A DNA stretch of 32,000 nucleotides from Microcystis aeruginosa NIES-843. Its GTDB lineage: Bacteria > Cyanobacteriota > Cyanobacteriia > Cyanobacteriales > Microcystaceae. Both the position numbers and the translations under genes were made by a program. Within the stretch, counting starts at the first letter, position 1. Every line of letters starts with the position of its first letter. This document shows, piece after piece, positions 10,025-31,046 of the stretch. The DNA lies in contig NC_010296.1 of assembly GCF_000010625.1 (NCBI RefSeq), positions 1,380,001-1,412,000 on the forward strand, in the 5' to 3' direction. The notes below the pieces were generated by a model that saw nothing but the letters and a program-made list of their open reading frames with translations, did no database searches and was not told where the DNA came from.

Positions 10025-10384
10025 CTATAGCAGAGAGACTAGCTGTGTCGGCGTTGCTGAATCATACATGACCTGGATACTTAAACTAGAGTTTGCTAAG
10101 GCTTGGGGAGTTACTAAGATTTCTATCTTCTGACCTAATGCTACTAGAAAGTCAAACATCTGCTCAAGAGAAAATTTTTGCAATCTGCCATTTTTTAAGT
10201 TAGAAATTTTAGCCTCGTCAATCCCCAAAATTTGACTGACCTCCTGCTGGCTTAATTCTTGTTCAGTAATCAGATCGTAAATCACTGAAGCCAGCTTGAC
10301 TTTAGCGAGTTTTTCTTCTGCATTAGCAAAGCCTAAGTCTTCAAAAATGTTTCCCGAAATAATAGTATATTCTGTCATAATCAT
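10025..10384 (-). CDS. XRE-family helix-turn-helix protein (HigA-type antitoxin-like), with no cognate toxin ORF immediately upstream
   Basis: 119 aa. The HTH segment is LSQQEVSQILGIDEAKISNLKNGRLQKFSLEQMFDFLVALG. Confidence 0.8.
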   Translation of the reverse strand: MIMTEYTIISGNIFEDLGFANAEEKLAKVKLASVIYDLITEQELSQQEVSQILGIDEAKISNLKNGRLQKFSLEQMFDFLVALGQKIEILVTPQALANSSLSIQVMYDSATPTQLVSLL

Positions 10385-10481
10385 TTATCTCCTTTTTGGT
10401 ATTTATTGTTGCTCTTTTGCGATCTCCTGTGCTTTTTTCAGGCGTTCTTTTTCTCCTACAGGTGATTGCATCATTCAACCT

Positions 10482-10781
10482 TTATTTGATCTCAGAGAAT
10501 AAAGCATCTAAATCTTGACGACCATTAACAATTCTTAAAATTTCCACCGTTTCATTAATTACTCGATAGAAAATAATATATCCATCTAAAGGTAAACCTC
10601 TCAAGGATGGTTTAATATGACTATAGCTGCGTCCTAACTTGGGAAATTGTACTAATTGTTGACACTTTTTGTAAAATTTTCTGAATAGTTTTTCACCTGC
10701 TTCAATATTTACTACTAAAAAATAATCGGCAATCTTGTTTAAATCTTGATTGGCTGAAGGCGCAATAATATAACGATTCAT
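10482..10781 (-). CDS. parE: ParE/RelE-superfamily toxin
   Basis: 99 aa. A..DL..I..Y, P.LGR, LRGLPLDGYIIFYRV...TVEILRIVNGRQD is the ParE pattern. It starts 2 nt after the upstream antitoxin stop. Confidence 0.85.
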   Translation of the reverse strand: MNRYIIAPSANQDLNKIADYFLVVNIEAGEKLFRKFYKKCQQLVQFPKLGRSYSHIKPSLRGLPLDGYIIFYRVINETVEILRIVNGRQDLDALFSEIK

Positions 10782-10783
10782 AA

Positions 10784-11044
10784 TTATTTTTGTTGCGCTT
10801 TTTTAAATTTTTCGAGTATATCATTTATAACTTTTTCTCCATCTAATCCCTCTCCATTATCTAATTCTGCTATGGCAACGTCAATTTTTTGACGAGTTTC
10901 TTCTACCCATTGTAAGTAATCTTGACCGAGGATTTCTAGCAAGTAAAAAGCGGTATCTATGACTTGTTCTGAATTATTAAATCTGCCACTTTTTAACTGT
11001 TTTTGGATAAATTGTTCTTGATTGGGTTTTAGTTGAATATTCAT
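10784..11044 (-). CDS. parD: ParD-family antitoxin
   Basis: 86 aa. MNIQLKPNQEQFIQKQLKSGRFNNSEQVIDTAFYLLE matches the COG3609/ParD-type N-terminus. Confidence 0.8.
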   Translation of the reverse strand: MNIQLKPNQEQFIQKQLKSGRFNNSEQVIDTAFYLLEILGQDYLQWVEETRQKIDVAIAELDNGEGLDGEKVINDILEKFKKAQQK

Positions 11045-11285
11045 GATGACTTTTGTAAGGTTAAGGGTTAAGTCGAGTGTCCTGTTTCATTTTACTACAA
11101 GGATTAGCTAAAATAGGTTAGTTGAGGTGCATTACATAACATTAACGCCCCCTTCCGAGATCGGCGATCGCTCCTTGTTTGAGTTGGTCGATGAGAGCAT
11201 TATCTCGTTCCCCGGTTCTACCTGAATATTGCTTTAAGGCAGAGCCTTGAAACAAGGGAAATGAGTAGGTAGTGGACTGTTTCAG

Positions 11286-12137
11286 CTAATTTGGTGCAAT
11301 AGATTCTCCCGATTCCTCCTCCTCAAACACAGGATAAAGATGTTTCAGCTTGACCCTAGCATCGCTGGTCGTAAACGTCCATATTACTGTAGATGCAGTC
11401 TGATTACGTTCTTTTTGCCAGGTTTCTATCTCCCTTTTCAGTTCTTCCTTGCTAGAAATCCTTCTATCTAAACATTGCCTCGATAAGACGCTTAGTTCAG
11501 TTTCGGCTACATTTAACCAGCTACCATTACGAGGTGTGTAATAAATTTCCAGTCTTCTAGCTAAACGATGAGCAACGGGTGCTGGAAATGCTTCATAAAG
11601 CGAGGCTATGTTATGAGTGTTGAGATTATCACAGACGAGCTTGACTTTTCGAGCCTTTGGATAGTCCACATCCAATAATTGACGAATTTCTTCTGCCCAA
11701 TCTATTCGGGTTCGACTATCTCGGTTACTCACCCGTCTCCATCCTCGATGGGGGTCAAAAAACATGAACAAGGCTTGAACCCCTTCACGACTATAGTGAT
11801 AGTCTTCTTTTTTATCTTGTCCAGGTTGCATGGGTATCGGAGGGTAAACTTCTCCAAGTAGTTGCTTTGATGCTTCATCCATCGCGATTAACGGTTCTTC
11901 TTCCGATGGCTGAGTGCCATACAGGTCAAGGACAACTTCCATCTGGGCAACAAATCGGGCTAAATCCTGTTCCGGAATACAGTATCTTTGGGTTTTCCAA
12001 GGGCGTAATTGGTTTTTTTTAGAGTACGCCACACCGTTGGACTGGAAATCTCGGTGATAATTTGTCTTTGTTTGAGTTCCGAGGTTAATAGTCGGATTGT
12101 CCACTCGGCTCGGCCAGATGGTGGCTCCGAACAGCAC
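11286..12137 (-). CDS. IS630 transposase, DDE catalytic part (orfB)
   Basis: The -1 frame after the A8 run reads KNQLRPWKTQRYCIP, continuing the family-typical LKPWK motif. DDE-region motifs are IAMDEASK, LVCDNLNTHN and TPRNGSWLNVAE. Confidence 0.8.
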   Translation of the reverse strand: MLFGATIWPSRVDNPTINLGTQTKTNYHRDFQSNGVAYSKKNQLRPWKTQRYCIPEQDLARFVAQMEVVLDLYGTQPSEEEPLIAMDEASKQLLGEVYPPIPMQPGQDKKEDYHYSREGVQALFMFFDPHRGWRRVSNRDSRTRIDWAEEIRQLLDVDYPKARKVKLVCDNLNTHNIASLYEAFPAPVAHRLARRLEIYYTPRNGSWLNVAETELSVLSRQCLDRRISSKEELKREIETWQKERNQTASTVIWTFTTSDARVKLKHLYPVFEEEESGESIAPN

Positions 12138-12463
12138 AGGGCAATGATTTGGGCGGCGGCGGCTCCATCAACTTTTGCCGGAGTGGGGGGAGTTTTTCTC
12201 GATTTCCGTTCTAATGCTGGTTTTTCGCCTTTTTGAAGAAATCTTTGACGAATACGTCCCACTGTATTTCTATGAACTTCTAAAGCTTCGCCTATTTCTT
12301 CATCTGTCCATTTCCTTTTCGCCTGTTCTCCCTCGTCACACATCAGCAAAATCCGAGCGTGGAGAATTTTTTTAGCTGGTGCATAGCCATTACGACTGAT
12401 TTGTTCGAGGTTTTCTCTTTGTTCCCCTGTTAGATTGACTTTATCTCGCCGACCTCTTCCCAT
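11960..12463 (-). CDS. IS630 transposase, N-terminal HTH part (orfA), joined to orfB by a -1 frameshift
   Basis: 167 aa with HTH/winged-helix segments. It ends shortly after the run CTA AAA AAA ACC (A8 on the minus strand; plus-strand T8 at 12013-12020). Confidence 0.8.
   Translation of the reverse strand: MGRGRRDKVNLTGEQRENLEQISRNGYAPAKKILHARILLMCDEGEQAKRKWTDEEIGEALEVHRNTVGRIRQRFLQKGEKPALERKSRKTPPTPAKVDGAAAAQIIALCCSEPPSGRAEWTIRLLTSELKQRQIITEISSPTVWRTLKKTNYALGKPKDTVFRNRI
12013..12020 (-). promoter_or_regulatory. A8 slippery run, candidate programmed -1 frameshift (or transcriptional slippage) site of the IS630 transposase
   Basis: The frame-A codons CTA AAA AAA ACC contain the A AAA AAA heptamer. 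Family homology switches from frame 0 to frame -1 exactly here. Confidence 0.6.
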
Positions 12464-12522
12464 GATTGATGTCCTCTGCTTGTTCGAGCTATTGCCCTAT
12501 TTTAGCTGAAACAGTCCAGTAG

Positions 12523-12586
12523 GGTGCGTTAGGAGCGCGACAATATTATTTAATTTACATTAATTACATAGGCGACGTAACGCACC
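12523..12586. repeat. Inverted repeat GGTGCGTTA ... TAACGCACC (9-bp arms, 46-nt AT-rich spacer)
   Basis: Read directly. It abuts the IS630 end. Confidence 0.5.
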
Positions 12587-12618
12587 AATATTATCCTAAA
12601 TCCCTTGAGTAACCCACA

Positions 12619-12649
12619 GAAAACCGGTTTCTCCGAGAAACCCGTTTTC
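12619..12649. repeat. 31-nt near-perfect palindrome GAAAACCGGTTTCTC-C-GAGAAACCCGTTTTC
   Basis: Read directly: 15-nt arms with 1 mismatch. Confidence 0.6.
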
Positions 12650-12815
12650 TACTCATGCACTCATGCAAAAAGGGGAATAAATAATCAGTAGATCGTAGCG
12701 ATTGTCTTAAAAGTCAAGGGGAATAAAGAAAATCTTTTGTACCCCAAATAGGCAAGACAAAGTAACGGCACCAGTCATCCGTTTTGTCAGCGATGAAATT
12801 GTTCGGAAAACTGGA

Positions 12816-13752
<937 letters not shown>

Positions 13753-13960
13753 CGTTTATGCTGGGGTTAAGTTATTTTGTCCCTTTGGTAACTCGTCCTT
13801 GCGAATACGAGGTTAATCCTCCAGCGATTGTTCGAGCTTGTCTCATCGGGATGACGGCGTGGCTCCGGTGGCTACCCAACGGTGTCAAGCACCTCGGTTG
13901 AACTGGATGTCCACGCCCTTTTTCAGAATATAGGCACCCAAGCTACAAAGCGGTATTTTT
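13753..13960 (-). ncRNA. Structured IS110 leader: candidate bridge (seek) RNA
   Basis: It is a non-coding stretch directly 5' of the transposase ATG. Visible stems are CTCGT/ACGAG (13792-13811), GGCGTGG/CCACGCC (13856-13917) and, nested within the latter, GGTG/CACC (13881-13893). The extent is not determined. Confidence 0.35.
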
Positions 13961-14106
13961 TACCTAGGTTGGGACGGGTTGCCTACTTCTCAAGATACAA
14001 GGTTGGGTTGAACGATAGTGAAACCCAACACTTTTAAATAATTGGGTTGGGTTTCGTTCCTCAACCCAACCTACGGCTCAAAAAAAAATCGACCCGCCTA
14101 GCGGCG

Positions 14107-14157
14107 GGAAAAAGAGAAAAAGAGAAAAAGGGTAAAAAGGGTAAAAAGGGAAAAAGG
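14107..14157. repeat. A-rich short tandem repeats (GAAAAA / GGGTAAAAA units)
   Basis: Read directly: ggaaaaagagaaaaagagaaaaagggtaaaaagggtaaaaagggaaaaaggg. It lies immediately 3' of the FGE-domain gene. Confidence 0.85.
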
Positions 14158-14158
14158 G

Positions 14159-16009
14159 CTACAGAGTCCTCCCGAATACGCAGACTACCCGAAAACCGAG
14201 AATGCTGTTGCGGCTGACGCGGCGGAAGTAGTAGTTGCGAATCGCGGAACGGCAGAGAATAGGATAGAAGCCCCAGGAACCGCCCCGCACTGGAGAACAA
14301 TTATCATTACCATTTTTTATCCAAGCACTGCCATCCCTTGGCGCATTCTCATAGGTACTATGCCAATCGTCCTCGCACCACTCCCAAACATTGCCAATCA
14401 TGTCATACAGTCCCCAAGCATTGGGCTTTTTCTGGCCCACAGGATGAGTTGTCTCCTGAGAATTTCCTTTATACCAAGCGTAATTTCCTAACTGATTAGC
14501 ATCATCACCGAAATAATAGCGAGTAGTAGTCCCCGCACGACAGGCATATTCCCATTCCGCTTCCGTCGGTAGGCGATAGGTTTTTCCTGTTATTTGACTC
14601 AATTTCTGACAAAAGGCTTGAGCATCGTTCCAACTAACCATTTCTACCGGATTTTGGGGATTGTTTTTAAACTCAGAGGGATTGGTTCCCATTACCGCTT
14701 CATATTGTGCCTGAGTCACTGGATATTTACCAATCGCAAAACTGTTGACTTTAACTTGGTGTTGAGGCTTTTCATTATCACTGTCAGCAGATCCCATGAG
14801 AAATTGACCTGCTGGTAAGCTCACCATCTTCAGTGTTATCCCATTGGGTAGGTTTTCGATAAATGAAGTTTTATTGTCTAGGGGTGTCTCTGGTTGAGCA
14901 GATTTAGATGCAATCATCCAATCTGATGGAGAAGAAGGAGTTTTATTGTCTAGGGGTGTCTCTGGTTGAGGAAGGGGAGGAATAGGAGAGTCACCGACGA
15001 CGGAGGTGCTAAAATTCCCAACTCTCTCGATTACATGGTTGTTGATGCGTTGAATGGCGGTTTCGAGTTCGATTTCCTCGTCGGGGATTTCCACTTCCGT
15101 CCATTGCCATCCTTCCTGCTCGGCTCGCTCTAGTGCGATCGCTAAACGGCCGCGCTTTTCTTCGCTGGTGACGAGGAAATTGAGCAAACTAGCCGATAGA
15201 TTCTCGTTTTTGCGGAAAGATACCGCCGATTCGGAACTGAGAATGTTCTGGACAAGGGATTCCACCTCGCTGACACTGCGGGAAAGTTCCCCGTCAATGG
15301 TCGCTACTTGATCGATTAAGCCTTGAAACTGTCCGATAATTGGTTTTAGGTATTGTTCTAGATTAATGGCTACTTTGGCCATTTCGATCGCTTCTTTTTC
15401 CAGATTATCTAACTCCAGCTGCAACTGATACACTTGTTTGTACCCGTTCAACTCGCCGATCATTTTCGAGAAAACCCGTTTTTGTGTATCCTGATCTTCA
15501 GCTAATTTCTGGATACTTTCGCTGATTAGGTCGATTTTCTTGAGCATGAGCAAGCTGGCGCGACCAACAAGAATCACAGTGCGGAAAATCTGCTGTTTCT
15601 GTAGTCTCAGGGTATCTCGCAGTTCAGCCGAGCCGATGCTATTCTCCAAAGATTGGCGTTTTCGCTCTGTTTCTGCCAATTTCTGGCATTTAACCGCCAC
15701 TGCCTCCTTGATTTCCTCGGTCAGTGACTGGAAAAACCGCCGGTATTCATCCTTATGGTCGGTGAGAAATCTGATTAACTGGTTATAGTCCCCGACTAAT
15801 CTTTCTAATTCTTGAAAAGTTTCCTCGAAATTGAGGGGTTCTTCTTTTTTCCTCAATCCTAACCATGTATTGCGGACCCGTTTTCCAGTTTTAATCAGTT
15901 GCTGTCTTTCTTGAATCTGATCCTGCAAAATTAATAAATCGGGGCGATTTAGTTGGGGAAGTTGATAGGTTTTCCGATAAAGCTTGATTTTCGCCGTTTC
16001 TTCTGCCAT
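14159..16009 (-). CDS. Fusion protein: ~370-aa uncharacterised coiled-coil N-terminal module, duplicated Pro-rich linker, and C-terminal FGE-sulfatase (SUMF1/EgtB/PvdO-type) domain
   Basis: 616 aa. The C-terminal domain has MVSLPAGQFLMGS, PQHQVKVNSFAIGKYPVTQAQY, RLPTEAEWEYACRAG, GNVWEWCEDDW, RGGSW and GFRVV. The N-terminal part is heptad-rich and I recognise no motif in it. Confidence 0.85.
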   Translation of the reverse strand: MAEETAKIKLYRKTYQLPQLNRPDLLILQDQIQERQQLIKTGKRVRNTWLGLRKKEEPLNFEETFQELERLVGDYNQLIRFLTDHKDEYRRFFQSLTEEIKEAVAVKCQKLAETERKRQSLENSIGSAELRDTLRLQKQQIFRTVILVGRASLLMLKKIDLISESIQKLAEDQDTQKRVFSKMIGELNGYKQVYQLQLELDNLEKEAIEMAKVAINLEQYLKPIIGQFQGLIDQVATIDGELSRSVSEVESLVQNILSSESAVSFRKNENLSASLLNFLVTSEEKRGRLAIALERAEQEGWQWTEVEIPDEEIELETAIQRINNHVIERVGNFSTSVVGDSPIPPLPQPETPLDNKTPSSPSDWMIASKSAQPETPLDNKTSFIENLPNGITLKMVSLPAGQFLMGSADSDNEKPQHQVKVNSFAIGKYPVTQAQYEAVMGTNPSEFKNNPQNPVEMVSWNDAQAFCQKLSQITGKTYRLPTEAEWEYACRAGTTTRYYFGDDANQLGNYAWYKGNSQETTHPVGQKKPNAWGLYDMIGNVWEWCEDDWHSTYENAPRDGSAWIKNGNDNCSPVRGGSWGFYPILCRSAIRNYYFRRVSRNSILGFRVVCVFGRTL

Positions 16010-16191
16010 CGCCGTGGTCGCTGAGGGTGAGTTTTTTCTATTTTAGTCCGATTTTTGATCATCAAATACTATCGCGATACGCCTAGGTAGTTAAGTTGTC
16101 AAATTCATCTAGTTTTCTAGAAATCTCGGCCAGAGGCGAAAAAATCAGCGACAATGATATAAATGGAGTTATCAACACAAGTAAAGCGATT

Positions 16192-16839
16192 ATGACTGTA
16201 GCCACGACGAACGCCCGAGATATTTTCCGCTCCGCCTACGAAAACCGTTACACTTGGGATGAACGATTCCCCGGTTACACTGCTGATATTATCCTCACCC
16301 AAGGAGAGGAAGTCCATACGGGCAAAATTCAAGTTAATGCCGATTATAGTGTGGAAGTAACGGGCATTGATGACGAGAAAGTGCAAGAAAGTATCTATAA
16401 TCAAATGCGCGACATCGTTACTCACCGCAAAAGAGGCAATTTTGATGCCTCCCACGGCAAAAACCAGTTTAATTTCGGGCAAGATGATCCCACCGGTGCA
16501 GTAGAAATTCTTGTCACCGGCGATGCTATGGGGTCTAATTATAAGGTCCGCGGCCAGGAAATCTGTCAAGTCAGTCGAGTCATGGGACCGATGGCTTTTA
16601 CTATTAATACCGAGGAAAGTCTCGATACGGGAGAAGGTTATATTTCTATTCGCTATAATGCCATTTTCCGCAATGCCAAAACCGATGAATTAAAGGGAAA
16701 ACGTGACTTTAAGGAAACCTACGAAAAAATCGGTAATTATTATTTACCCTCCTGTCAAGTGATTAACGCAATCGATGCCGGGGGCGAAAAATCCACCACA
16801 GAATTTACTTTTATCAATCTGCAGCTTTTAGAATCTTAA
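16192..16839 (+). CDS. Conserved cyanobacterial/plastid-lineage hypothetical protein (DUF3386-like, assigned from memory)
   Basis: The track ORF starts at TTG 16096. The first ATG at 16192 gives MTVATTNARDIFRSAYENRYTWDERFPGY (215 aa), matching the usual size and N-terminus of this family. Confidence 0.7.
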   Translation: MTVATTNARDIFRSAYENRYTWDERFPGYTADIILTQGEEVHTGKIQVNADYSVEVTGIDDEKVQESIYNQMRDIVTHRKRGNFDASHGKNQFNFGQDDPTGAVEILVTGDAMGSNYKVRGQEICQVSRVMGPMAFTINTEESLDTGEGYISIRYNAIFRNAKTDELKGKRDFKETYEKIGNYYLPSCQVINAIDAGGEKSTTEFTFINLQLLES

Positions 16840-16877
16840 GGGTTATCCCCGCCCAAAAAGCGTTAGGATCGAAGTAA

Positions 16878-17109
16878 CTAAGTAGGTGGGTGTTAAAAAT
16901 TGTCGGATCCCCCCGCCTATCGGCACCCCCCTTATCAAGGGGGGCAGGGGGGATCAAACCCCCCTTATCAAGGGTAGATCCCCCCGCCTATCGGCACCCC
17001 CCTTATCAAGGGTAGATCCCCCCGCCTATCGGCACCCCCCTTATCAAGGGGGGCAGGGGGGATCAAAGACAATATCTATCTTCAATTTAATTGAAACCAC
17101 TTACTTACA
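16878..17109. repeat. C6/G6 hairpin-module MITE, expanded copy (three GATCCCCCCGCCTATCGGCACCCCCCTTATCAAGGG units)
   Basis: It has the same flanks as 9846-9999 (CTAAGTAGGTGGGTGTTAAAAATTGTCGGAT ... TTCAATTTAATTGAAACCACTTACTTAC). It ends 31 nt before the nfu start codon. Confidence 0.7.
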
Positions 17110-17139
17110 CTGTAATAAATCTCTGACCAGAAGCTGATT

Positions 17140-17663: not shown

Positions 17664-18752
17664 ATGACTGAAAATATCCCCACTATTGTGGTCATGCACG
17701 GCGACCAAACTGGAGAAGAACTATTACTAGAAGCCCTGAGAGTATTGCAACCCTCGATAATTCGTCAACCGCTTAACTTTGCCGATTTTGATCTTAGTTT
17801 AGCCCAGCGTCGCCAGAGTAACAATCAAGTGGTTCATGAGGCCGCCGAAGCGACTCTAAAAACCGGATTAGCTCTCAAAGCTGCCACCATTACCCCAGAA
17901 ATTAAAGGAGATGTGGGCAGTCCTAACGCTATTTTAAGAGAAGCAATGAATTCTCAGGTAATTCTCCGCATCGGTCGCCGTATCCCCGGTATTCGTCCGA
18001 TTGGGGGCGTTTATTCTCCCATTGCCATTGTCCGCATGGCCGTTGATGATGCCTATGGGGCCAAAGAATGGCGAGAAACCACTGCCACCGGCGATGAAAT
18101 TGCCTATCGCACCTCGCGCATTTCTAGGGCTACCAGTCGCGCTGTGGCCGAGTTTACCTTTCAACAGGCCAAAAAAACCGGGGCGCGGGTATTTGGCGGC
18201 CCAAAATTCACCGTTAGTGCCACCTACGAAGGGATGTTTAAAGAGGAATTAGACGCGGCGGCCCAAAGACATCCGGAAGTGCGTTATCAACCCCTGTTAA
18301 TTGATGCAACTTTTGCCCTACTTTTACAAACCGACGGCGAAGCTTTGGTGATTCCGGCACTTAATCGCGATGGCGATTTATTATCTGATTTTGTCTTGCA
18401 ACTCTATGGCAGTATTGCCGGGGCCGAAAGTTTAGTTTTGGGATTTGATGAGGAGACCTTAGCGGTTAAAACTATTATGGCAGAAGCTCCCCACGGCACT
18501 GCCCCCGCTTTAGAGGGCAAAAATATCGCTAATCCCATGGCGATGATTTTAGCCGCGGCAGCTTTGTTAGGTTATATCGAAACTAACGAAGCGCGTAAAG
18601 CTTCCAGGGCAATTTATGAAAGTGTCTTTGAAACTATTCACGAGGGCAAAAAAACCCCCGATTTAGGGGGACAAATGACCATGAGTGAGTTTACCGATGA
18701 GGTGATTCGTCGCGTGGTCAGTAAGTTAGAAGTTTGGTCGGCCTTGGGGTAA
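17664..18752 (+). CDS. Isocitrate/isopropylmalate dehydrogenase-family protein, short IDH1-like (subfamily II-like) form
   Basis: 362 aa. VVMHGDQTGEE, KAATITPE, SPNAILRE, LLIDA, NRDGDLLSD and EAPHGTA parallel the motifs EMQGDEMTR, KCATITPDE, SPNGTIRN, RLIDD, NYDGDVQSD and EAAHGTV of eukaryote-type NADP-IDH. Confidence 0.85.
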   Translation: MTENIPTIVVMHGDQTGEELLLEALRVLQPSIIRQPLNFADFDLSLAQRRQSNNQVVHEAAEATLKTGLALKAATITPEIKGDVGSPNAILREAMNSQVILRIGRRIPGIRPIGGVYSPIAIVRMAVDDAYGAKEWRETTATGDEIAYRTSRISRATSRAVAEFTFQQAKKTGARVFGGPKFTVSATYEGMFKEELDAAAQRHPEVRYQPLLIDATFALLLQTDGEALVIPALNRDGDLLSDFVLQLYGSIAGAESLVLGFDEETLAVKTIMAEAPHGTAPALEGKNIANPMAMILAAAALLGYIETNEARKASRAIYESVFETIHEGKKTPDLGGQMTMSEFTDEVIRRVVSKLEVWSALG

Positions 18753-18912: not shown

Positions 18913-19536
18913 ATGAAATTACAAACTTTGACAAAAACTCTGACTATTGCTCTGATTGGTGTAGGACCTGCCTTGACCTTACAATCACCGAGCCAAGCTC
19001 AAGCCAGATTCGAGTGTCTTTTACCAGTAACAGGCCGCTATGTAGGAGTTCCCACAACCTATGCCAAAGTCGGCTCTAATGAACGCAAACCTGTGATTCG
19101 TTGGGTTTCTCGTTATTCTAGCGGTTCCGGTTACACTCCCCAGCAACGGTGTCTAGAAGTAACTAAACGATTCAATACCCTTGATGCTCGACCTAGAGGA
19201 ATTGATATTATTACCACTGGCTATCTCAATGGTCTGCCGGTCATCTATTCCCCTAGTCATGGACGAGAACGGGCAAATAGCAGTAACCTGTTATTTACCC
19301 TCAAGAGAGGGGAAGACGCAACCCAGAAAATCCAACTGCTATTTGACCTCCGGGCGGGACACTACACCGAGCCTTTGTTTGAAAGCTCATCGGATTCTGT
19401 CATTGTCTATTTCAATAAATTCCTAGAAAATGCTCCCGTGGAAACAAATCTGGCTACTGGTTCGTCCCCCTCTCCACTGCCGGAGACTTCTCCCGAACAA
19501 CCCCCCCAAAAACCATCGGGCGGTTCTGTTTGGTAA
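18913..19536 (+). CDS. COP23-domain (circadian oscillating protein-like) secreted protein
   Basis: The ATG at 18913 gives the signal-like MKLQTLTKTLTIALIGVGPALTLQSPSQAQA. The core is RFEC...KPVIRW...GYTPQQRC.EVT.RFN...TTGYLNGLPVI...LLFTLK. The tail is Pro/Ser-rich and ends GGSVW. Confidence 0.72.
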   Translation: MKLQTLTKTLTIALIGVGPALTLQSPSQAQARFECLLPVTGRYVGVPTTYAKVGSNERKPVIRWVSRYSSGSGYTPQQRCLEVTKRFNTLDARPRGIDIITTGYLNGLPVIYSPSHGRERANSSNLLFTLKRGEDATQKIQLLFDLRAGHYTEPLFESSSDSVIVYFNKFLENAPVETNLATGSSPSPLPETSPEQPPQKPSGGSVW

Positions 19537-19573
19537 ACTTTTCTAGTTCTATAGATAGGAGCATAGTAATCAA

Positions 19574-20503
19574 GTGAGTCGGCCTATAAAAAGAATTTTG
19601 GCTGGTGCGGGCAGTTTATTATTGGGACTGTCCACACCTTTGCTTGCTGTCCAAAGCTATGCTCCCGCTCTGGAACCTAACCAGGCCAATGCCTATAGCT
19701 CTCAACAACTTTCGGAACAACAGCTGCGTCAGTTAGCCAGAGCAATTACTGTTAAGGTGTTATCAGGGCAAGGCTGGGGTTCGGGCATTTTAGTTGAAAA
19801 GCAGGGTGCTTCCTACAAAGTCCTCACGAATGACCATGTTTTAGGGCGGTATCGCTATCGGGGTTGGCAAATACAAACCCCTGACGGCAAGATACATCGG
19901 GGTGAGTTGGTCAGAACAGTTCGCTTGAATGATTATGATTTAGGCTTAGTTTCTTTTCGCAGTAGCCAAGTTTATTCTATTGCTGATTTGGCTAATGTCG
20001 ATGATCTCGCTATCGGAGATGAAGTTTTCGCCGCTGGCTTTCCCTTCGATGGCGATCGCCCGACAGAACAAGGATTTACCTTCACCCTGGGTAAAGTGTC
20101 GCTTTTGAGTGATAAATCCTTTTCGGGGGGCTACCAAATCGGCTACACCAATAAGATTAAAAATGGCATGAGTGGCGGACCGCTGCTGAATCGGCAAGGT
20201 AAAGTTATTGGTATTAACGGGATTCATGCTTATCCTCTCTGGGGTAAATCCTACGTTTTTGCTGATGGAACAGTGACTTCACCAGCACTGTGGGAACAAA
20301 TGAGTCGATTAAGTTGGGCGATTCCTATCGGGACTTTTTTACAATCGGGGTCATCTTCTCCATCTGCTTCCAGTCGGCAACGGCCCGCAGTGTCACCCCC
20401 ACCGCTTCCCACCCATAGAGAAACCACTTTCTCGGAAGATTTTCCTTCTCCATCCTCGTCAACCCCAAGAGAAAAGAATCCCGCTCCCACACCCCTCTGG
20501 TAA
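19574..20503 (+). CDS. Secreted trypsin-like (S1, Trypsin_2-type) serine protease
   Basis: GTG start and a signal-like N-terminus. The catalytic triad contexts are LTNDHVL, DYDLGLV and GMSGGPLL. There is no PDZ domain. The Pro/Ser-rich tail ends APTPLW. Confidence 0.85.
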   Translation: MSRPIKRILAGAGSLLLGLSTPLLAVQSYAPALEPNQANAYSSQQLSEQQLRQLARAITVKVLSGQGWGSGILVEKQGASYKVLTNDHVLGRYRYRGWQIQTPDGKIHRGELVRTVRLNDYDLGLVSFRSSQVYSIADLANVDDLAIGDEVFAAGFPFDGDRPTEQGFTFTLGKVSLLSDKSFSGGYQIGYTNKIKNGMSGGPLLNRQGKVIGINGIHAYPLWGKSYVFADGTVTSPALWEQMSRLSWAIPIGTFLQSGSSSPSASSRQRPAVSPPPLPTHRETTFSEDFPSPSSSTPREKNPAPTPLW

Positions 20504-20531
20504 ATTCCACTCAACTGTATTTTTAAACCAG

Positions 20532-21737
20532 ATGAGCAACAATTTCTTGAAAATTTCCGCCGCCCTAGTTAGTATAGCGGTGTTTGTGGTTTCTCCTCAG
20601 ATTGCTAAGGCATCAACAACTGAGCAGATAGAAAAAATTGCTGAAAAGATTACCGTTTTAATCCCCTCAGAAGAAGAGGGGGCGAATGGGAAAATTACTG
20701 CTAATGGCTCTGGATCAATTATTGCCAAAGAAGGAAAAGTTTATACTGTTCTTACTGCCAGTCATGTGATCTGTAAAGATGCTAGAGATGCCTGCAAGTT
20801 CTATTACGATCAACTTAAAATTATTACCTGGGATGGCAAGCAATATCCGCTCGATTACAATAGCATCAAAAAATTACCCGGAGTAGATCTAGCTCTCGTG
20901 CAGTTTCAGAGCGACCAAAATTATCAGTTAGCGACCTTGGCTAACTATCAAGTAGCTGACGAACAATTTATTTTTGCTTCTGGATGGCCCGACCCGAAAT
21001 TTATCGGCAAGCGGAAACGATTGTTCAATGTGGGGAAAGTGCTGCCCAAATACATTACACCCTTGCTGAAAATATTTCCCCCAGAGTTGGGGTATGAGAT
21101 AGTTTATACCAGTGTCACCTATGGGGGCATGAGTGGCGGTCCAGTGTTAGATATAAATGGACGAGTCATCGCGGTTCACGGACAAAATGAAGCCGAAAAA
21201 ATCGAAAAGGTTCCCGTGCCAATTGGCTTTAGTCTCGCTATTCCCATCACTACTTTTTTGAAATTAGCACCCCAGTCTGGCATTCAAGGGCAGATAAATG
21301 TCGAAAATTCGCCCCCCAATGCCTTATCTTTGCAAGAAATTGGTGATGAATTATACAAGGCTTTTGAAGTTCCCAATAATAACGATACTAATCCCCTCAA
21401 CTGGCTTAATCAAGGCAATAAAATGTGGCGGTTAGGACAATTAGCCCTCGCCTATGCCGCCTATGAAAAAGCCTTGCAACTCGATGCTCAACTCTATCAA
21501 GCTTGGTACGGTAAAGGTCTGGTCTTGACCTACTGGAAACGCTCCCAAGAGGCGCTGGCCGCCTACGAACAAGCTCTCAAAATTAATCCTGACTCCGATA
21601 CCGCCAAAAAACTGCGCGACAAGCTCCAAGAATCTTTAGGGGGAAGAAATACCCCTTCTCTAACCCCCTCACAGCCAACCACCGCGCCCACCGTGGAGCC
21701 TTCACCACAGCCCTCTAATCCAAGGAGACTATGGTGA
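20532..21737 (+). CDS. Secreted trypsin-like S1 serine protease fused to C-terminal TPR repeats
   Basis: The signal-like N-terminus is ISAALVSIAVFVVSPQIAKA. The triad contexts are LTASHVI, VDLALV and GMSGGPVL. About 3 TPRs follow (WLNQGNKMW...AYEKALQLDAQLYQAWYGKGLVL...AYEQALKINP). The Pro-rich tail ends NPRRLW. Confidence 0.85.
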   Translation: MSNNFLKISAALVSIAVFVVSPQIAKASTTEQIEKIAEKITVLIPSEEEGANGKITANGSGSIIAKEGKVYTVLTASHVICKDARDACKFYYDQLKIITWDGKQYPLDYNSIKKLPGVDLALVQFQSDQNYQLATLANYQVADEQFIFASGWPDPKFIGKRKRLFNVGKVLPKYITPLLKIFPPELGYEIVYTSVTYGGMSGGPVLDINGRVIAVHGQNEAEKIEKVPVPIGFSLAIPITTFLKLAPQSGIQGQINVENSPPNALSLQEIGDELYKAFEVPNNNDTNPLNWLNQGNKMWRLGQLALAYAAYEKALQLDAQLYQAWYGKGLVLTYWKRSQEALAAYEQALKINPDSDTAKKLRDKLQESLGGRNTPSLTPSQPTTAPTVEPSPQPSNPRRLW

Positions 21738-21757: not shown

Positions 21758-22372
21758 TTAGCTAATAGTGGGTTGCACCAATTTAGCTAAGAATGCTTGA
21801 ATTGCTCGTAGTTCTGCGGGAGGATTGCGGAGAAACTCTTCGTTACTGGCTAAAATCATCGCATTATAGGCCCGCACCGCCGCCAGCAATTTAGCTGGAA
21901 CTACCTTCTTATCTTTGGTCAGTTTCTCTAAGCTGGCCAATAAGTCTTCAATAACATTTAAAGGCGCTGTGCCGGGGGCTGAGTAAAGAGCGGCAATGAC
22001 AGCATTGATATTATTACCCGCCTGTGCATCCCCTGTTAAGATGCTCAGTAGCGATTGCTGAACGGCTGCGGGAATCGGGGTACCCGTGGGGGAGGTTAAA
22101 TTATTATCAGCTAACAGAATATTCAGAGAAGCAGCCGCCTGATTAACAGCGATTTGAGCCGGTTCTCCCCCCTGAAATCCCGTTACCGTCGTGGTGCTGG
22201 GGAAAGTTTGACCGGCAAAATCACCGGTGGAAAGAATTGGCCCAGTGGCATCGGATTGGTTGCCGGTTTGCGCCATAGCGGGAGAGACTAGGGCATTGGT
22301 CAGCAAAACCGCCGCCACTAGGGAAACTTGCCAATTAGTCAACCATTTCATCAACATGGTCTTAATCCTCAT
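21758..22372 (-). CDS. Secreted Ala-rich helical hypothetical protein
   Basis: 204 aa with a signal-like MKWLTNWQVSLVAAVLLTNALVSPAMA-Q. I recognise no family. It lies 33 nt downstream of the beta-barrel-like gene on the same strand. Confidence 0.55.
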   Translation of the reverse strand: MRIKTMLMKWLTNWQVSLVAAVLLTNALVSPAMAQTGNQSDATGPILSTGDFAGQTFPSTTTVTGFQGGEPAQIAVNQAAASLNILLADNNLTSPTGTPIPAAVQQSLLSILTGDAQAGNNINAVIAALYSAPGTAPLNVIEDLLASLEKLTKDKKVVPAKLLAAVRAYNAMILASNEEFLRNPPAELRAIQAFLAKLVQPTIS

Positions 22373-22405: not shown

Positions 22406-23620
22406 CTAACGGGGGAAAAAGTAATTGTAGCCGATACTCATGACGAAGCGAGCGCCGTCCCCGGCATTGCCCGTTAAATCAGCACCGGCAAGGTTAACCG
22501 TCAAGGGGACTTTCGGGAAGGGAATCAGGGAAATACCTGCGTTTAAATCTTGACCCGACCATTCGACAATGGCCGAGACCGGTTCAACAATTCGTAAACC
22601 CGCACTAGCAAAGACACCGAGGGAATTTACCCCATCTTCGATGGCTCCTTCCGAGCGAAAACGACCACCACCAACACCCAAGGAGAGCGTCAATTGACTA
22701 AAGGGTTCTTTCGTTGTTTCTGTGAACTGAAAAAATTTGCTCACCACCCCGTAGATACTGCTACCGGCATCTGTCCCACCCCAGCGAATGGCGTTTTCAA
22801 ATCCTAGGGCCACAGCAAAACCTTCTGGCAGAGAACGGTGAATTTTAAAGCTAAAACTACCCCGTCCGGCGTTATCACCAAAAAGGCTCAAAATCGCCAG
22901 AGTTACATCTAAACCGACAATTTTCTGGCGTTCTCCTAAACCGACCCCTAGGGCTAACCCGCCATCTGCTTGATTGGTAAAACGGGTTCTCGACTGGAAA
23001 GCGAAACCACCGAAAATCTGCCCAAAATTCGCTCCAAAACCGATGGGAGTAGAGATACTGCCACTAGGGGCAACCACAAATTCCGCCAGTTTCGCAGAAA
23101 GGGTTTTCGGTTCCTCAATCAGAAAATCTTGACGTAAACGCTGTAATTCGGGGGAAACATTGGTATCAACTGGGGTGGATGCTTGCGCTTGCCATTTTTC
23201 GACTTCTGGCGAGTTATTACCCCCTGCTGGGAAAAGCTGACTCGCTTGCATTGTCCCTAGATTCGCCTTCCATTCTTCTAGGGTTGAAATTGTCCCGGTC
23301 TTTTCTGTTGCTAAAGTATCGAGGGAAGATTTCCCTAGTTTATTTTCTAAGGATGAGGGCAGATTACTATCGGCTAATCCCTCTGTTGTCGAGAAGGAAT
23401 TGGTGGTCAGAATTCTGTCCGTCCTCTCTAATTCCACGGGGGAATTAAGGATAATTTTTTCCCGGGATACCCGAATAGAAGCAGCGTCAATGTCTAAGGG
23501 GGAAGGAAGGGCCTTCATCCCATCACAAAGTATGGCTGTCCCCACACAGGATGTGATGAAAATTCCTCCAGAAAATATCTGTCTCATCTGGCTGTTTCTT
23601 TTGGCTTTTTTTAATAACAC
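22406..23620 (-). CDS. Putative outer-membrane beta-barrel protein with a ~190-aa non-barrel N-terminal region
   Basis: The C-terminal ~210 aa show alternating hydrophobic/Gly-rich strand patterns: GGFAFQSRTRF, LALGVGLG, VTLAILSLFG, SFSFKIHRSL, FAVALGFENAI, LTLSLGVGGGRF, GVFASAGLRI and ARFVMSIGYNYFF. An alternative start is the Met at 23587. Confidence 0.5.
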   Translation of the reverse strand: MLLKKAKRNSQMRQIFSGGIFITSCVGTAILCDGMKALPSPLDIDAASIRVSREKIILNSPVELERTDRILTTNSFSTTEGLADSNLPSSLENKLGKSSLDTLATEKTGTISTLEEWKANLGTMQASQLFPAGGNNSPEVEKWQAQASTPVDTNVSPELQRLRQDFLIEEPKTLSAKLAEFVVAPSGSISTPIGFGANFGQIFGGFAFQSRTRFTNQADGGLALGVGLGERQKIVGLDVTLAILSLFGDNAGRGSFSFKIHRSLPEGFAVALGFENAIRWGGTDAGSSIYGVVSKFFQFTETTKEPFSQLTLSLGVGGGRFRSEGAIEDGVNSLGVFASAGLRIVEPVSAIVEWSGQDLNAGISLIPFPKVPLTVNLAGADLTGNAGDGARFVMSIGYNYFFPR

Positions 23621-25597: not shown

Positions 25598-26960
25598 TGG
25601 GACTTAAACGCCAAATAAAGATCAAATCGAGTATAATCGTTAAAGAGTAAGCACTTTACGTTGAAAGATCAGCGATGAAAGAGACAACCCCAGCCGCGAT
25701 GCCCCCATGCTTTGACCGATGGTGTCGGCGGTTTGACAATTGCTTCAAAAACGAAGCGCAAAAAAACGGCTTCAGACAATATTTAGGAGGATTATTAGGG
25801 GAAAGTGAGAGGAAAAACCTCACTCAAATGGCCAATAATGCCGTCGGAGTAGTTTATAACCGATTACATCACTTTTTGACCGAATCTCCCTGGTCAGACC
25901 GTCAGGTGAATGAATGTCGGTTGCAAGTGATGAACCAATGCCGCCAGACGCAAATCCCCCGAGGATTTTCCCTGATTGTCGATGACTCAGGACATCGAAA
26001 AAGTGGCAATCTGACCGCCGGAGTTGGCAGGCAGTACCTAGGAGAAATTGGCAAGACAGACAACGGAATAGTCGCCGTCACTACCCATCTCTACGACGGC
26101 AAAAAAAGTGTCCCCCTAGACATTGAAATTTATCAACCGGCTAGTTCCTTAGCCGAGGGGAAAGAAGACAAAGAATTTAAGAAGAAACCAGAGATAGCGA
26201 TAGATTTAATTGACCGGAGCTTAACCAGAGGCTATCGACCGAAAATCGTCTTAATAGATGCTGGTTATGGCAACAACACAAATTTTCTCAAAGCCCTGGA
26301 AGAAAGAAAGCTAAAATACTTAGGAGGATTGGCAAAAAATCGAAAAGTAATTATTGAAAAAGAAGGGGGTGTGGAAGAAACAATCCAGCTTGAGCAACTA
26401 GCAAAAAGCCTATCAGAAAAGGATTGGGAGAAAATCACCCTAAATCTAGATAAAGAAAAAACGGTTTGGGTAGCGGTATTCAGAGCGAAAATATCTCAAC
26501 TAGAAGGAGAAAGGAACTTGGCGATCGTCATGAATGCAAGTTCAATGGAAAAAGCCACAGAGGTGGACTATTTCATCACCAATGTAGTTGAGGCAGATAC
26601 AGTAACAGCTTCGTGGATAGTGAGGACTTACACCGAAAGAAATTGGGTGGAAGTATTCTACCGAGAAGCCAAAGGATGGTTAGGGTTAAGGGAATATCAA
26701 GTCAGGGATAAACGAAGCTTACTTCGTCATTTTATCCTGGTGTTTTGTGCCTATACATTTATCCTGTGGCATAAGTTAACTGGGGGATTGCAAAGGCAGT
26801 GGGCGAATCGACCTTTAAACACTTTTGTGGAAGCCTTGGAAGCTTTTCGGACAGCGATGTCTTTCCGTTTCTTTGAGTGGCTGACCGAGAATCGGGATGT
26901 GTTTGCCGCTTACAAAGCCAGTTTAGGCTTTGTTTGGGCTTGAAATTTGTTTAAGTCCCA
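25598..26960 (+). mobile_element. IS701-like insertion sequence with a CTAG target-site duplication
   Basis: The inverted ends are TGGGACTTAAAC (25598-) and GTTTAAGTCCCA (-26960). CTAG is present at 25594-25597 and 26961-26964. Confidence 0.8.
25675..26943 (+). CDS. IS701/IS4-superfamily DDE transposase
   Basis: 422 aa with SLIVDDSGHRKSG, VLIDAGYGNN and YTERNWVEVFYREAKGWLGLREYQVR. Confidence 0.85.
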   Translation: MKETTPAAMPPCFDRWCRRFDNCFKNEAQKNGFRQYLGGLLGESERKNLTQMANNAVGVVYNRLHHFLTESPWSDRQVNECRLQVMNQCRQTQIPRGFSLIVDDSGHRKSGNLTAGVGRQYLGEIGKTDNGIVAVTTHLYDGKKSVPLDIEIYQPASSLAEGKEDKEFKKKPEIAIDLIDRSLTRGYRPKIVLIDAGYGNNTNFLKALEERKLKYLGGLAKNRKVIIEKEGGVEETIQLEQLAKSLSEKDWEKITLNLDKEKTVWVAVFRAKISQLEGERNLAIVMNASSMEKATEVDYFITNVVEADTVTASWIVRTYTERNWVEVFYREAKGWLGLREYQVRDKRSLLRHFILVFCAYTFILWHKLTGGLQRQWANRPLNTFVEALEAFRTAMSFRFFEWLTENRDVFAAYKASLGFVWA

Positions 26961-28874: not shown

Positions 28875-31046
28875 TCAACTTCCCTCCCAGATTTTTAAAT
28901 AGGCATTTTCCATATTTTCAGCGAATTTTTTCCCTTGCCAGAGGGGGGCTGTGTCACGATTTCCTAACAGTTGATGGCTGATGTCTTGACGAAGGGAGCG
29001 ATCGAGTCCTAATTTTACTCCCCAGTCGATATATTCTGCCTCATTCCAGCCAATTCCGGCTTCAATACCGGCATTAATCATAAAAGTATAACTATTGCGC
29101 GCGGAAAATTGTTCTCCTACCAGTGTAACTAAAGGGATTCCTTGCCATAAAACTTCTAAGGTGGTGGTAGCGCCATTGTAGGGATAGGTATCTAACACCA
29201 CATCAGCAATCTGTAAATTAGCGCGATGGGTATATTCATCTATATCTCTCGGTAAAAATCGCAATCTTTGGGGATTAACTCCCTCCAGAATCGCTATTTC
29301 AGTAAATAATTCTTGAATTTTTTCAGTCTTACCGACTCCCTTAATCAGAAAATAACTATTAGGCACTTGTGCGAGAATTTTCATCTGAAGTTTAATAGTA
29401 TCAGGATGACGTTTCATGCCACTTTGTACGGAAAAATAGATGGTAGCATCGGGGGGAATTTCTAAATCTTCTCGACGGAGATTAGGAGTACCGATTTCAA
29501 AACCATCCACTGCTAAATATGTCTCTGGTAAACGATAGATTTTTTCTCGATAATATTCCTCCGCTTGCTGGGGTAAAACGTAGGGATCGGCGATATAGTA
29601 ATCAATAGTTGCTAATCCAGAAGCATCCCAACCTAACCAAGTCACTTGTTTTGCTGCGGGTTTCAGGGCGATAATCTGATTGGTGAGATTATGGGTTAAA
29701 CTATCTAAATCTACTAGAATATCTATCTGATCCTGTTGAATTTGTTGGGCAACTTCTAGGGGATTTTGAGCGTAGGGAAAATGACGGATAATATCTCGGC
29801 TATCCCGGAACCATTGACGGGTAATTTCATCTTCTTCTTGGTTAATAGTATAGATGGCTATTTGCAATTTTTCTCGATCATGATGGTGAATTAACCAACG
29901 ACTTAACCAACCGACAGAATGATGTTTTAAGGTACTGGCAAGATAACCGATCGTTAGTTTTTCTGGAACTTTTTTGATAGTAACCAAAGGAGTTTTTAAG
30001 CTATTATTATCAAGGAAAATTTCGGCGATGCGATTAGTTAATTGTCGATTGGCTAAAGCTCGATCGCCTAGGTAGGGTAGGGGACTAGAAACATTGAGAA
30101 AGCTAGTTTTAATAATCGGTTCTAAAGTGATATTTTTCTGACGGGTTAATTCCTGTAATAAATCATGATATTCTTGATAAATATGATCAATTTCTTGCCA
30201 AACTCCCCAGCGCAAAAGTATTAACAAAATCAGATAATTACTGTATAACTTTAGGGTTGGAGTTAGACAAATTTCTCGGAATTGATAGGCAGTTATCAAA
30301 GAATTATCAAAGTCTTCTGCTAAAATATAGAGGTTAACCAATTGTTCCAAAAGACTCAGATCATTTGGTCTTAATTGCAGACAAAGTTTAATAATTTCCA
30401 CTCCAAAAGTGGGACTTTGTTGCTCGTTGGTGACTCGTGCTGCTATCTGAAAAGCTTGCGGGATAAAACTATCGGCTAATTCCTCCAGGTAGGGTAAACT
30501 TGCTTGAGCTAAGTCTAAAGTTAATTCATGGGGATATAAAAGACTTTTGAGAACTACATTTAAAAGTAATTCTCGATCGGGATTAGATCTGAGATTCTCT
30601 TGAATAGGATAATTAAGTAGTTCTTCAGGATCAAATATTTCTAAATCTAAAGCTAAGTCGAATAAAGCTAATAAATTATTAATTGACTTGGGAACAATTT
30701 CCTGTAGATGATAGCGAAAATATTCTACAGCTGCCAGATCACCTTTTCTTTGTTGTCGTCGCGCTTCTGCGTCTAAAACCGCTTCTAATTCTGCTTGCCA
30801 TTGCTTAACTTCTTCCAGATTACCTTCGCTTAAAATACTTTGCCACATTACCTGTGCTGCTGCTTCTAAATTTTGCAGAAGATAGGCAACTCCCAAGTAC
30901 CAATAGTCAGAAATATTTTCGGAATTGTTATCGATTAGTTCCTCGTAGATTGCCGCAACTTGAGGATAATCTTCGGCAATTAAAGCTTGATAAGCGTCAG
31001 GATGCCACATAAAAAACTTAGGGTGTGTTAACGAATTGTAACACAC
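28875..31046 (-). CDS. TPR-like N-terminal region fused to a GT41 (SPINDLY/O-GlcNAc-transferase-family) glycosyltransferase
   Basis: The C-terminal half carries IGYLASTLKHHSVGWL, QVTWLGWDASGLATIDYYIADPYV, HPDTIKLQMKIL, LDTYPYNGATTTLEVLWQGIPLVT and FSARNSY. The track start is GTG 31046. The ATG at 31010 (MWHPDAY) is the likelier start. Confidence 0.85.
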   Translation of the reverse strand: MCYNSLTHPKFFMWHPDAYQALIAEDYPQVAAIYEELIDNNSENISDYWYLGVAYLLQNLEAAAQVMWQSILSEGNLEEVKQWQAELEAVLDAEARRQQRKGDLAAVEYFRYHLQEIVPKSINNLLALFDLALDLEIFDPEELLNYPIQENLRSNPDRELLLNVVLKSLLYPHELTLDLAQASLPYLEELADSFIPQAFQIAARVTNEQQSPTFGVEIIKLCLQLRPNDLSLLEQLVNLYILAEDFDNSLITAYQFREICLTPTLKLYSNYLILLILLRWGVWQEIDHIYQEYHDLLQELTRQKNITLEPIIKTSFLNVSSPLPYLGDRALANRQLTNRIAEIFLDNNSLKTPLVTIKKVPEKLTIGYLASTLKHHSVGWLSRWLIHHHDREKLQIAIYTINQEEDEITRQWFRDSRDIIRHFPYAQNPLEVAQQIQQDQIDILVDLDSLTHNLTNQIIALKPAAKQVTWLGWDASGLATIDYYIADPYVLPQQAEEYYREKIYRLPETYLAVDGFEIGTPNLRREDLEIPPDATIYFSVQSGMKRHPDTIKLQMKILAQVPNSYFLIKGVGKTEKIQELFTEIAILEGVNPQRLRFLPRDIDEYTHRANLQIADVVLDTYPYNGATTTLEVLWQGIPLVTLVGEQFSARNSYTFMINAGIEAGIGWNEAEYIDWGVKLGLDRSLRQDISHQLLGNRDTAPLWQGKKFAENMENAYLKIWEGS

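Follow-up and report, generated by a model that had tools for sequence, protein, structure and literature searches.

This report concerns a window of 32,000 nucleotides (nt) of Microcystis aeruginosa NIES-843 (NC_010296.1, positions 1,380,001 to 1,412,000; coordinates are counted within the window unless a locus number is given). It holds three adjacent, co-directional genes that encode a COP23-domain protein and two putative secreted serine proteases, here called ProtA and ProtB, and each product ends in a proline- and serine-rich tail capped by tryptophan. The listing of open reading frames (ORFs) in the window bore out the spacing given in the first-pass annotation, which had been made from the sequence alone: 37 nt separate COP23 from ProtA and 28 nt separate ProtA from ProtB. 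The COP23 gene (18913..19536, +) encodes 207 amino acids (aa) from an ATG start; its longest ORF runs from a TTG at 18868, and homologues begin at the ATG, which has AAGGA 5 nt upstream. ProtA (19574..20503, +; 309 aa) starts with a GTG preceded by TAGGAG 12 nt upstream, and ProtB occupies 20532..21737 (+). The N-termini resemble Sec signal peptides (MKLQTLTKTLTIALIGVGPALTLQSPSQAQ/A in COP23, MSRPIKRILAGAGSLLLGLSTPLLAVQSYA/P in ProtA and MSNNFLKISAALVSIAVFVVSPQIAKA/S in ProtB); a crude rule, which underlies all predictions of signal peptides here, called them in all three proteins, as had been suggested. The genes finish in GGT TCT GTT TGG TAA (COP23), CCC CTC TGG TAA (ProtA) and AGA CTA TGG TGA (ProtB), so that TGG stands directly before the stop codon in each case and tryptophan is the encoded last residue; the ends SGGSVW, APTPLW and NPRRLW read earlier are thus correct at the DNA level. 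A promoter and terminator scan gave no more hits than shuffled sequence and was therefore uninformative; in the gaps between the three genes it showed nothing like a terminator on the + strand.

The COP23 protein is made up of a signal peptide (aa 1-30), the COP23 domain (aa 32-171) and a disordered P/S-rich tail (aa 173-207) delimited by C-terminal alignments (19429..19533, +) and ending ...KPSGGSVW-COOH. Its match to Pfam PF14218 spans model positions 1-137 of 138 at 91.4 bits against a cut-off of 27 (E 5.6e-26), and the family comprises 1947 clusters at 50% identity. Residues C35 and C80 are invariant in the homologue alignment, a cysteine pair that fits an extracytoplasmic protein. The core of the AlphaFold2 (AF2) model mostly exceeds a predicted local distance difference test (pLDDT) value of 80, and the tail lies below 50. 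A Foldseek comparison of the model with the PDB found no structural relative (best E 0.096), and a COP23 profile search of PDB sequences gave no match, so an analogy to inhibitors or pro-domains could not be drawn. In other species COP23 has been described as membrane-peripheral (PMC6315102). It was already known in the 1990s, and its function was still called unresolved in a 2026 preprint (bioRxiv 10.64898/2026.04.23.720389). In UCYN-A, diazoplasts and Cyanothece, COP23 ranks with the genes that are regulated most strongly by day/night or by nitrogen (PMC6315102; bioRxiv 10.64898/2026.04.23.720389), and in Cyanothece RF-1 it is reported to oscillate via rhythmic synthesis and degradation (bioRxiv 10.64898/2026.04.23.720389).

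We note that COP23 is unusually variable within Microcystis, with alleles of fixed length (207 aa) down to ~65% identity (window versus loci L001-L004) and one allele (P0087), with the same signal peptide, down to 55%. The ratio of non-synonymous to synonymous substitution rates (dN/dS) within Microcystis is 0.60 for COP23, 0.22-0.37 for the proteases and 0.03 for the neighbouring Iso_dh gene. Variability peaks at aa 148-154, and the last residues, KPSGGS[VA]W, are fixed within the genus.

ProtA carries a Trypsin_2 domain (Pfam, E 1.8e-23) with the catalytic triad H88 (19835-19837), D122 (19937-19939) and S200 (20171-20173), followed by a predicted disordered tail of ~50 aa (20351..20500, +) ending ...NPAPTPLW-COOH. 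In ProtB a protease domain (aa 59-215; Trypsin_2, E 1.3e-14) is followed by ~2 TPR motifs (aa 291-356, 21402-21599; TPR_1, E 1.1e-11, also TPR_2/TPR_8) and a tail (aa 365-401, 21624-21734) ending ...NPRRLW-COOH. The His/Asp/Ser contexts had been judged intact and proved to be conserved: the ProtA triad is invariant among 51 homologues and that of ProtB (H78/D119/S201) is kept in 24-25 of 26 orthologues. A search of Pfam found no PDZ domain in either protein. The ProtA profile matched in the PDB only the protease domains of DegP, DegQ, DegS, HhoA and HtrA, and its AF2 model was closest to the DegP/DegQ/DegS protease domains (Foldseek E 5e-14; template modelling score up to 0.80 on isolated protease domains). 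Against TIGR02037 ProtA scored 69.6 and ProtB 32.9 bits for a cut-off of 416, and both fall far below every NCBIfam HtrA cut-off. These profile and model comparisons indicate that the two proteases are HtrA-like catalytic domains outside the HtrA family proper, with the PDZ domain replaced by a disordered tail in ProtA and by TPR repeats plus a tail in ProtB. Orthologues of ProtB occur with TPR, without TPR, or with TPR and PDZ together.

A conserved gene unit

When a single genome of each species was scanned with a 10-sequence COP23 alignment, 47 loci were obtained, in which the window proteins were compared with all ORFs. In 39 of these loci, drawn from more than 20 genera, the next gene 3' of COP23 on its strand encodes an S1 protease; the remaining loci are cut contigs or hold the most distant COP23 paralogues. 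The linkage was seen in Microcystis, Laspinema, Coleofasciculus, Xenococcaceae, Spirulina, Oscillatoria, Argonema, Phormidium and Limnospira, and also in Sphaerospermopsis, Roseofilum, Iningainema, Snowella, Petrachloros, Tychonema, Microcoleus and Lyngbya, among others. A reverse look-up that started from ProtA homologues found COP23 immediately upstream in all five cases (Crocosphaera, Calothrix PCC 7507, Cylindrospermum, Nostoc and Microcoleus). From these genome comparisons COP23 and the proteases are judged to be a conserved gene unit.

The partners are occasionally fused. In Tychonema, Microcoleus and Lyngbya a Trypsin_2::COP23 protein of 432 aa occurs (COP23 E 2e-30, Trypsin_2 E 3e-25; L034 8958-10256), and a single 879-aa protein joins ProtA, ProtB and TPR (L026 7204-9843). 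Neither this protein nor the COP23 of its locus has the tail, which is also absent from the Trypsin_2::COP23 fusion and from its neighbours; covalent linkage therefore seems to replace the tail. Other domain fusions around the core lie at L031 8483-10714, L055 11708-12862 and L052 6825-9464, and the kinds seen also include protease::TPR::WD40, Fasciclin::COP23 and a ProtB that carries TPR, PDZ and TPR.

Expression data from a relative agree with the gene order. In an Arthrospira platensis transcriptome only 21 genes were differentially expressed, three of which have consecutive locus tags, namely RS07465 (COP23; log2 fold change -1.97), RS07460 (serine protease; -2.08) and RS07455 (serine protease; -2.10), and a TPR gene was down-regulated alongside this operon (PMC13114239). 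The three Arthrospira orthologues are thus co-regulated. Lack of synteny, variable termini and separate transcription had been named in advance as grounds for doubting the unit; gene order is instead conserved, the termini are kept in distant orthologues (see below) and the Arthrospira genes respond together, which answers for a real unit on all three counts.

The first-pass annotation had suggested that the three genes might be a self-contained module. They do form a conserved unit, but the module extends further, to two more genes in the window and to CAP, papain, DUF4344 and VWD proteins in other genera. Clusters of Type I consist of COP23, ProtA, a TPR-bearing ProtB and the genes dn404 and dn204, and occur in Microcystis, Laspinema, Oscillatoria, Phormidium and one metagenome-assembled genome. 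In Type II, ProtB has 300 aa and no TPR; its C-terminus is an amphipathic helix followed by ...RIPGLPF or ...GLFGC, which it shares with an adjacent large VWD protein, and W-tagged CAP, papain or uncharacterised proteins follow downstream. Type III, found in Oscillatoria acuminata and Roseofilum, has DUF4344 and stand-alone TPR proteins. In the window dn404 (22406..23620, -) was delimited by synteny, alignment and a beta-moment scan, and dn204 (21758..22372, -), which has a low-complexity region and a helical C-terminal domain, by synteny; both products are predicted to be secreted. The conserved C-terminal domain of dn404 (~230 aa) has 10-11 beta-amphipathic segments and, in other genera, an end typical of outer-membrane proteins (...GYSYFFxF). 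From this periodicity and C-terminal motif alone, dn404 is a candidate small outer-membrane beta-barrel. It stands on the same strand after the TPR-type ProtB in Laspinema, Oscillatoria, Phormidium and one metagenome-assembled genome, and dn204 always comes just after it; the pair follows a TPR-type ProtB in five loci beyond the window. In Microcystis the two form a unit inverted relative to the protease genes, and dn204 is fast-evolving there (dN/dS 0.52). Searches of Pfam, NCBIfam and PDB sequences gave no match to either protein even at lenient thresholds. The synteny indicates that dn404 and dn204 belong to the TPR-type module.

An anti-phage defence system was considered and rejected. In PADLOC the proteases resembled RT-Protease_XI and LmuA only through their generic protease domains (E 1e-7 to 1e-11), COP23, dn204 and dn404 had no match, and all five module proteins are predicted to be secreted. 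In Nostoc (L054) a COP23-protease-protease cluster sits between a TpsB (Omp85/ShlB) transporter gene (5201-7066) and the gene for a giant TPS-domain plus CHAT protein (10329-16915).

The tryptophan-ended tail

The terminal tryptophan, proposed from the three window proteins, is conserved in distant orthologues of COP23 and ProtA. Nearly all of the best 120 matches to the window COP23 end in W, including proteins of 35-46% identity from other orders, and the typical end is GGS[VLIA]W; the family logo reads G-G-[SPG]-[LVAI]-W. Among the best 150 COP23 representatives the last residue is W in 65, F in 26 and Y in one, and the others stop right after the domain. For ProtA, W is last in 64 of 120 homologues (family logo [PN]-[GE]-[RPWL]-L-W) and position -2 is L in 42 of 49 distinct tails; the tails have a median length of 47 aa (range 22-122) and are rich in P, S, E and T. 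Tail-less ProtA homologues end after the last strand (...SWAIPIxTF). The conserved positions of the tail are thus the adjacent -1 (W) and -2 (L/V/I/A), with -3 variable, and both tails modelled with AlphaFold are disordered (pLDDT <60; 39-59 in ProtA). The part of the earlier claim that did not stand concerns ProtB: a W end occurs only in Microcystis, Laspinema, Roseofilum and a few others, and most long TPR-bearing orthologues lack the W tail, so the ProtB tryptophan is a minority feature.

To set these counts against a background, the ends of 319 unrelated ORFs of at least 150 aa in the fetched loci were counted: W is last in 14, of which 10 are themselves tagged cluster neighbours. The rate that remains is ~1.3%, at which three adjacent W termini would be expected at ~2e-6, so the observation in the window goes far beyond chance. 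The tail is also found on unrelated neighbours of the core genes, namely CAP/PR-1 proteins, a papain C1 peptidase, DUF4344 metallopeptidases and three uncharacterised families. In O. acuminata PCC 6304 five consecutive proteins, all predicted to be secreted, end in SVW, RIW, RVW, RIW and RVW; behind them comes a small TPR protein, likewise predicted to be secreted. The tail is missing from all 58 DUF4344 homologues retrieved from other contigs. A single-pass receptor Ser/Thr kinase encoded between a tagged COP23 and a protease is tagged at its extracytoplasmic end (...NNEPLW), which places the action of the tag in the periplasm, on an anchored protein. On these alignments the tail behaves as a shared, family-independent tag.

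Receptor Ser/Thr kinase genes adjoin COP23 paralogues at L027 6044-7849, L029 2140-4092, L037 6128-7840, L041 5019-7232 and L031 5410-7119. COP23 paralogues beside such kinases in several genera end ...ENP[YFW][ED]N[FW], and one kinase ectodomain has ...PLW. A further C-terminal signature, an amphipathic helix followed by ...R-x-[IV]-P-G-L-P-F (variants ...GLFGC and ...ILPF), was seen on short ProtB and adjacent large VWD-domain proteins; proteins of this kind lie at L048 11568-12494 and 12554-14836, L014 9546-10448, L016 7992-8942 and 9066-11546, and L053 10648-12915. Their shared ends suggest a second tag in the same clusters.

Several known kinds of C-terminal signal were tried and set aside. 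The beta-signal of outer-membrane proteins was rejected as only -1 and -2 are hydrophobic, with Pro, Gly or Ser before them and no alternation at -1, -3 and -5. Sortase-type sorting domains (LPXTG, PEP-CTERM, GlyGly-CTERM) were rejected as the tails are P/S/T-rich, end at W-COOH and match no NCBIfam sorting-domain model. A prenylated C-terminal Trp was set aside as no cluster has a prenyltransferase and the proteins are predicted to be Sec-exported.

Possible readers of the tail

We propose that the tail is a docking tag read by the module's own proteases, a reading to which we would give a probability of roughly 0.4. The system would be a conserved cyanobacterial cell-envelope proteolysis module, with a core of a COP23-domain protein and one or two secreted, PDZ-less HtrA-like serine proteases, in which the flexible P/S-rich linker with its aliphatic-Trp-COOH cap serves as the recognition and docking element. 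Docking inside the module is suggested by a tag that is cluster-restricted, family-independent, dispensable in fusions and present on a membrane-anchored periplasmic tail. The S1 protease domain is the sole untagged, always-present partner, which points to the protease as the reader, most likely through its active-site cleft; the tail would bind there much as a substrate or product does, its Trp occupying P1 and its Leu/Val/Ile P2. Substrate binding in chymotrypsin-fold proteases follows an adjacent P1/P2 pattern, and PDZ ligands are recognized at positions 0 and -2. The adjacent aliphatic -2 and Trp -1, with -3 variable, therefore look less like a PDZ ligand than like P2-P1 recognition. In some lineages TPR or PDZ domains, where added, may assist reading. 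Through the tag, COP23 and further secreted proteins encoded in the cluster, as well as the proteases themselves, would be tethered to the protease pair, either as clients for timed turnover or as regulators or inhibitors of PDZ-less proteases that would otherwise be unregulated. In HtrA-type enzymes it is normally the PDZ domain that does the gating. The cycling of COP23 by synthesis and degradation in Cyanothece RF-1 would fit a co-encoded protease acting on COP23.

A number of points weigh against docking on the proteases. The loci were fetched via COP23, which makes the argument from a universal partner partly true by construction, and the cluster restriction of the tag was judged from these loci plus the 58 DUF4344 homologues. 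The fusions come from five closely related loci of the Tychonema/Microcoleus group for Trypsin_2::COP23 and from one locus for ProtA::ProtB. A comparison of W-tailed with tail-less ProtA found no clear specificity-determining positions. The AF2 model of ProtA, built with 51 homologues, leaves its own tail undocked, with only a slight rise in pLDDT over the last 9 residues. In addition, HtrA-family S1 pockets usually favour small aliphatic residues, and Trp at P1 would be unusual. A more specific and rather doubtful version of docking on the proteases holds that the tail is an encoded product mimic that plugs the S1/S2 pockets, giving a self-inhibited envelope complex of COP23, proteases and variable secreted hydrolases whose timed release or degradation underlies rhythmic COP23 turnover. 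If true, S1 proteases would be regulated in trans in a way that is new, and the COP23 family would gain its first functional assignment.

Another possibility is that the tails are C-terminal ligands of the accessory domains of ProtB, TPR or in some lineages PDZ, and switch the protease on allosterically; the reading would be like that in DegS, or like the recognition of C-terminal peptides by TPR in Hop and Pex5. The TPR of the second protease was the reader named in the first-pass annotation. ProtB has TPR repeats in Microcystis, Laspinema, Oscillatoria, Phormidium and others, small stand-alone TPR proteins with predicted secretion occur in the O. acuminata and Roseofilum clusters, the ProtB of Calothrix PCC 7507 is arranged as TPR, PDZ and TPR, and the Arthrospira TPR gene falls with the operon (PMC13114239). 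However, TPR is fused to ProtB or encoded nearby in only about half of the tagged clusters; in the rest (L006, L007, L010/L048, L011, L012, L014-L016, L018, L024, L025, L028, L051, L053 and L054) ProtB has neither TPR nor PDZ and no TPR gene lies within 8 kb, which rules out TPR as a universal tag reader. The Microcystis ProtB has only ~2 TPR motifs, and conservation at -1 and -2 differs from the usual 0/-2 pattern of PDZ ligands. We therefore regard this reading as a live alternative for Type I clusters that cannot be general, and overall as unlikely. The tail might also be a sorting or retention signal, with the dn404 barrel or some machinery from another part of the genome as its reader, for the export, surface anchoring or compartmentalisation of Sec-exported proteins. 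Family-independent C-terminal tags on secreted hydrolases are typical of such signals, all tagged proteins have predicted signal peptides, the TPR-type clusters include a candidate outer-membrane barrel and a TpsB/Omp85 transporter flanks the Nostoc cluster. Set against this, the tail has no hydrophobic helix and nothing cleavable beyond the motif, the tag is also on an inner-membrane-anchored kinase ectodomain, it is missing from fusion proteins and from DUF4344 proteins outside the cluster, and most tagged clusters have no dn404; we consider a sorting role improbable.

Explanations that dispense with a reader fare worse. The linker could be a spacer and the terminal aliphatic-Trp could partition non-specifically into the membrane interface, sheath or polysaccharide. 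Tryptophan does prefer membrane interfaces, and the tails are predicted to be disordered; COP23 has moreover been called membrane-peripheral (PMC6315102). Two residues would make a very weak anchor, however, and the strict last-residue position with a free carboxylate, the cluster restriction and the absence from fusions all favour a specific partner, so that such an anchor seems very unlikely. Low-complexity drift with a coincidental terminal Trp would account for tails that are poorly conserved except for their last residues, but the terminal W is kept at 35-45% identity across orders, 92 of 150 COP23 representatives are aromatic-ended against a background of ~1.3% (for W-ended ORFs), and the same end occurs on at least seven unrelated families; these data effectively refute an absence of function.

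The nearest relatives of the window proteins are from M. aeruginosa, at 98% identity, and the genes surrounding the operon are housekeeping genes and transposases. Upstream, at 17664-18752, lies the gene for a 362-aa Iso_dh-family dehydrogenase that falls below every NCBIfam equivalog cut-off (best 123.7 versus 409.8 bits) and is nearly invariant within Microcystis (99% identity, dN/dS 0.03). At 16906-17067 a set of 53-nt repeats contains four copies of a 17-nt element (ACCCCCCTTATCAAGGG), for which there are inverted-repeat partners; the ORF of 83 aa that spans them (16886-17137) is probably not a gene. DDE transposase genes (11286-12137 and 25675-26943) flank the wider region, and guanine-plus-cytosine content dips to 0.33-0.36 at 10001-11000 and 30001-32000 against a window mean of ~0.45.

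Relation to known systems

The component families were known beforehand, as was the concept of C-terminal recognition tags; what is apparently undescribed is this tag and this module. As the first-pass annotation had surmised, no description of a COP23-protease module or of the Trp tag was found in openly accessible papers, and neither NCBIfam (June 2026) nor Pfam has a model for the tail, dn404, dn204 or the uncharacterised tagged families. It can now be tested whether COP23 serves a dedicated pair of envelope proteases as client, regulator or adaptor, given its near-constant linkage to PDZ-less HtrA-like proteases, the occasional fusions, the co-expression in a relative and the shared aliphatic-Trp C-terminus.

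The closest parallel is with the HtrA/DegS-DegP system, whose protease-domain fold and sequence family ProtA and ProtB share. Both systems are periplasmic (ours by prediction), and a free aromatic C-terminus, the recognised feature there, is proposed to be so here. They differ in that the ligand tails of DegS and DegP are YxF-COOH ends of outer-membrane proteins, whereas the tails described here are aliphatic-Trp ends of soluble co-encoded proteins and of the proteases themselves, and in that ProtA and ProtB lack PDZ and score far below HtrA family cut-offs. After self-cleavage, the alphavirus capsid protease keeps its C-terminal Trp lodged in the S1 pocket; in alpha-lytic protease and subtilisin it is the pro-region whose C-terminal tail fills the active site. 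The likeness lies in a chymotrypsin-fold serine protease, a C-terminal aromatic residue as a product-like ligand (as proposed here) and a separate small regulator domain. Unlike the capsid case, the Trp of the module is an encoded terminus and not a cleavage product, it is carried by many different proteins, and its docking is only proposed. In Escherichia coli the TPR adaptor NlpI and the tail-specific protease Prc control the hydrolase MepS. That system resembles ours in pairing a TPR element with a protease that reads C-termini (as proposed here) and controls the levels of a secreted envelope hydrolase, but Prc is an S41 protease with PDZ and not a PDZ-less S1 enzyme, the TPR there is on a separate lipoprotein, and the clients share no encoded tag.

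The carboxysome protein McdB offers a cyanobacterial example of a disordered protein end whose last-residue Trp docks to a partner (PMC11321042); it acts in cytoplasmic carboxysome positioning, the proteins are unrelated and no protease is involved. The LPXTG, PEP-CTERM and GlyGly-CTERM systems, among others (bioRxiv 10.1101/2023.06.07.544157), likewise mark secreted proteins of different families, frequently hydrolases, with a short C-terminal signature, and the marked proteins are encoded close to their processing system. Those signals combine a motif with a transmembrane helix and a basic cluster and undergo sortase-type cleavage, whereas the tail described here is soluble and ends at its Trp. 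The tag would be a new, very short and helix-free C-terminal recognition signal in Gram-negative envelope biology.

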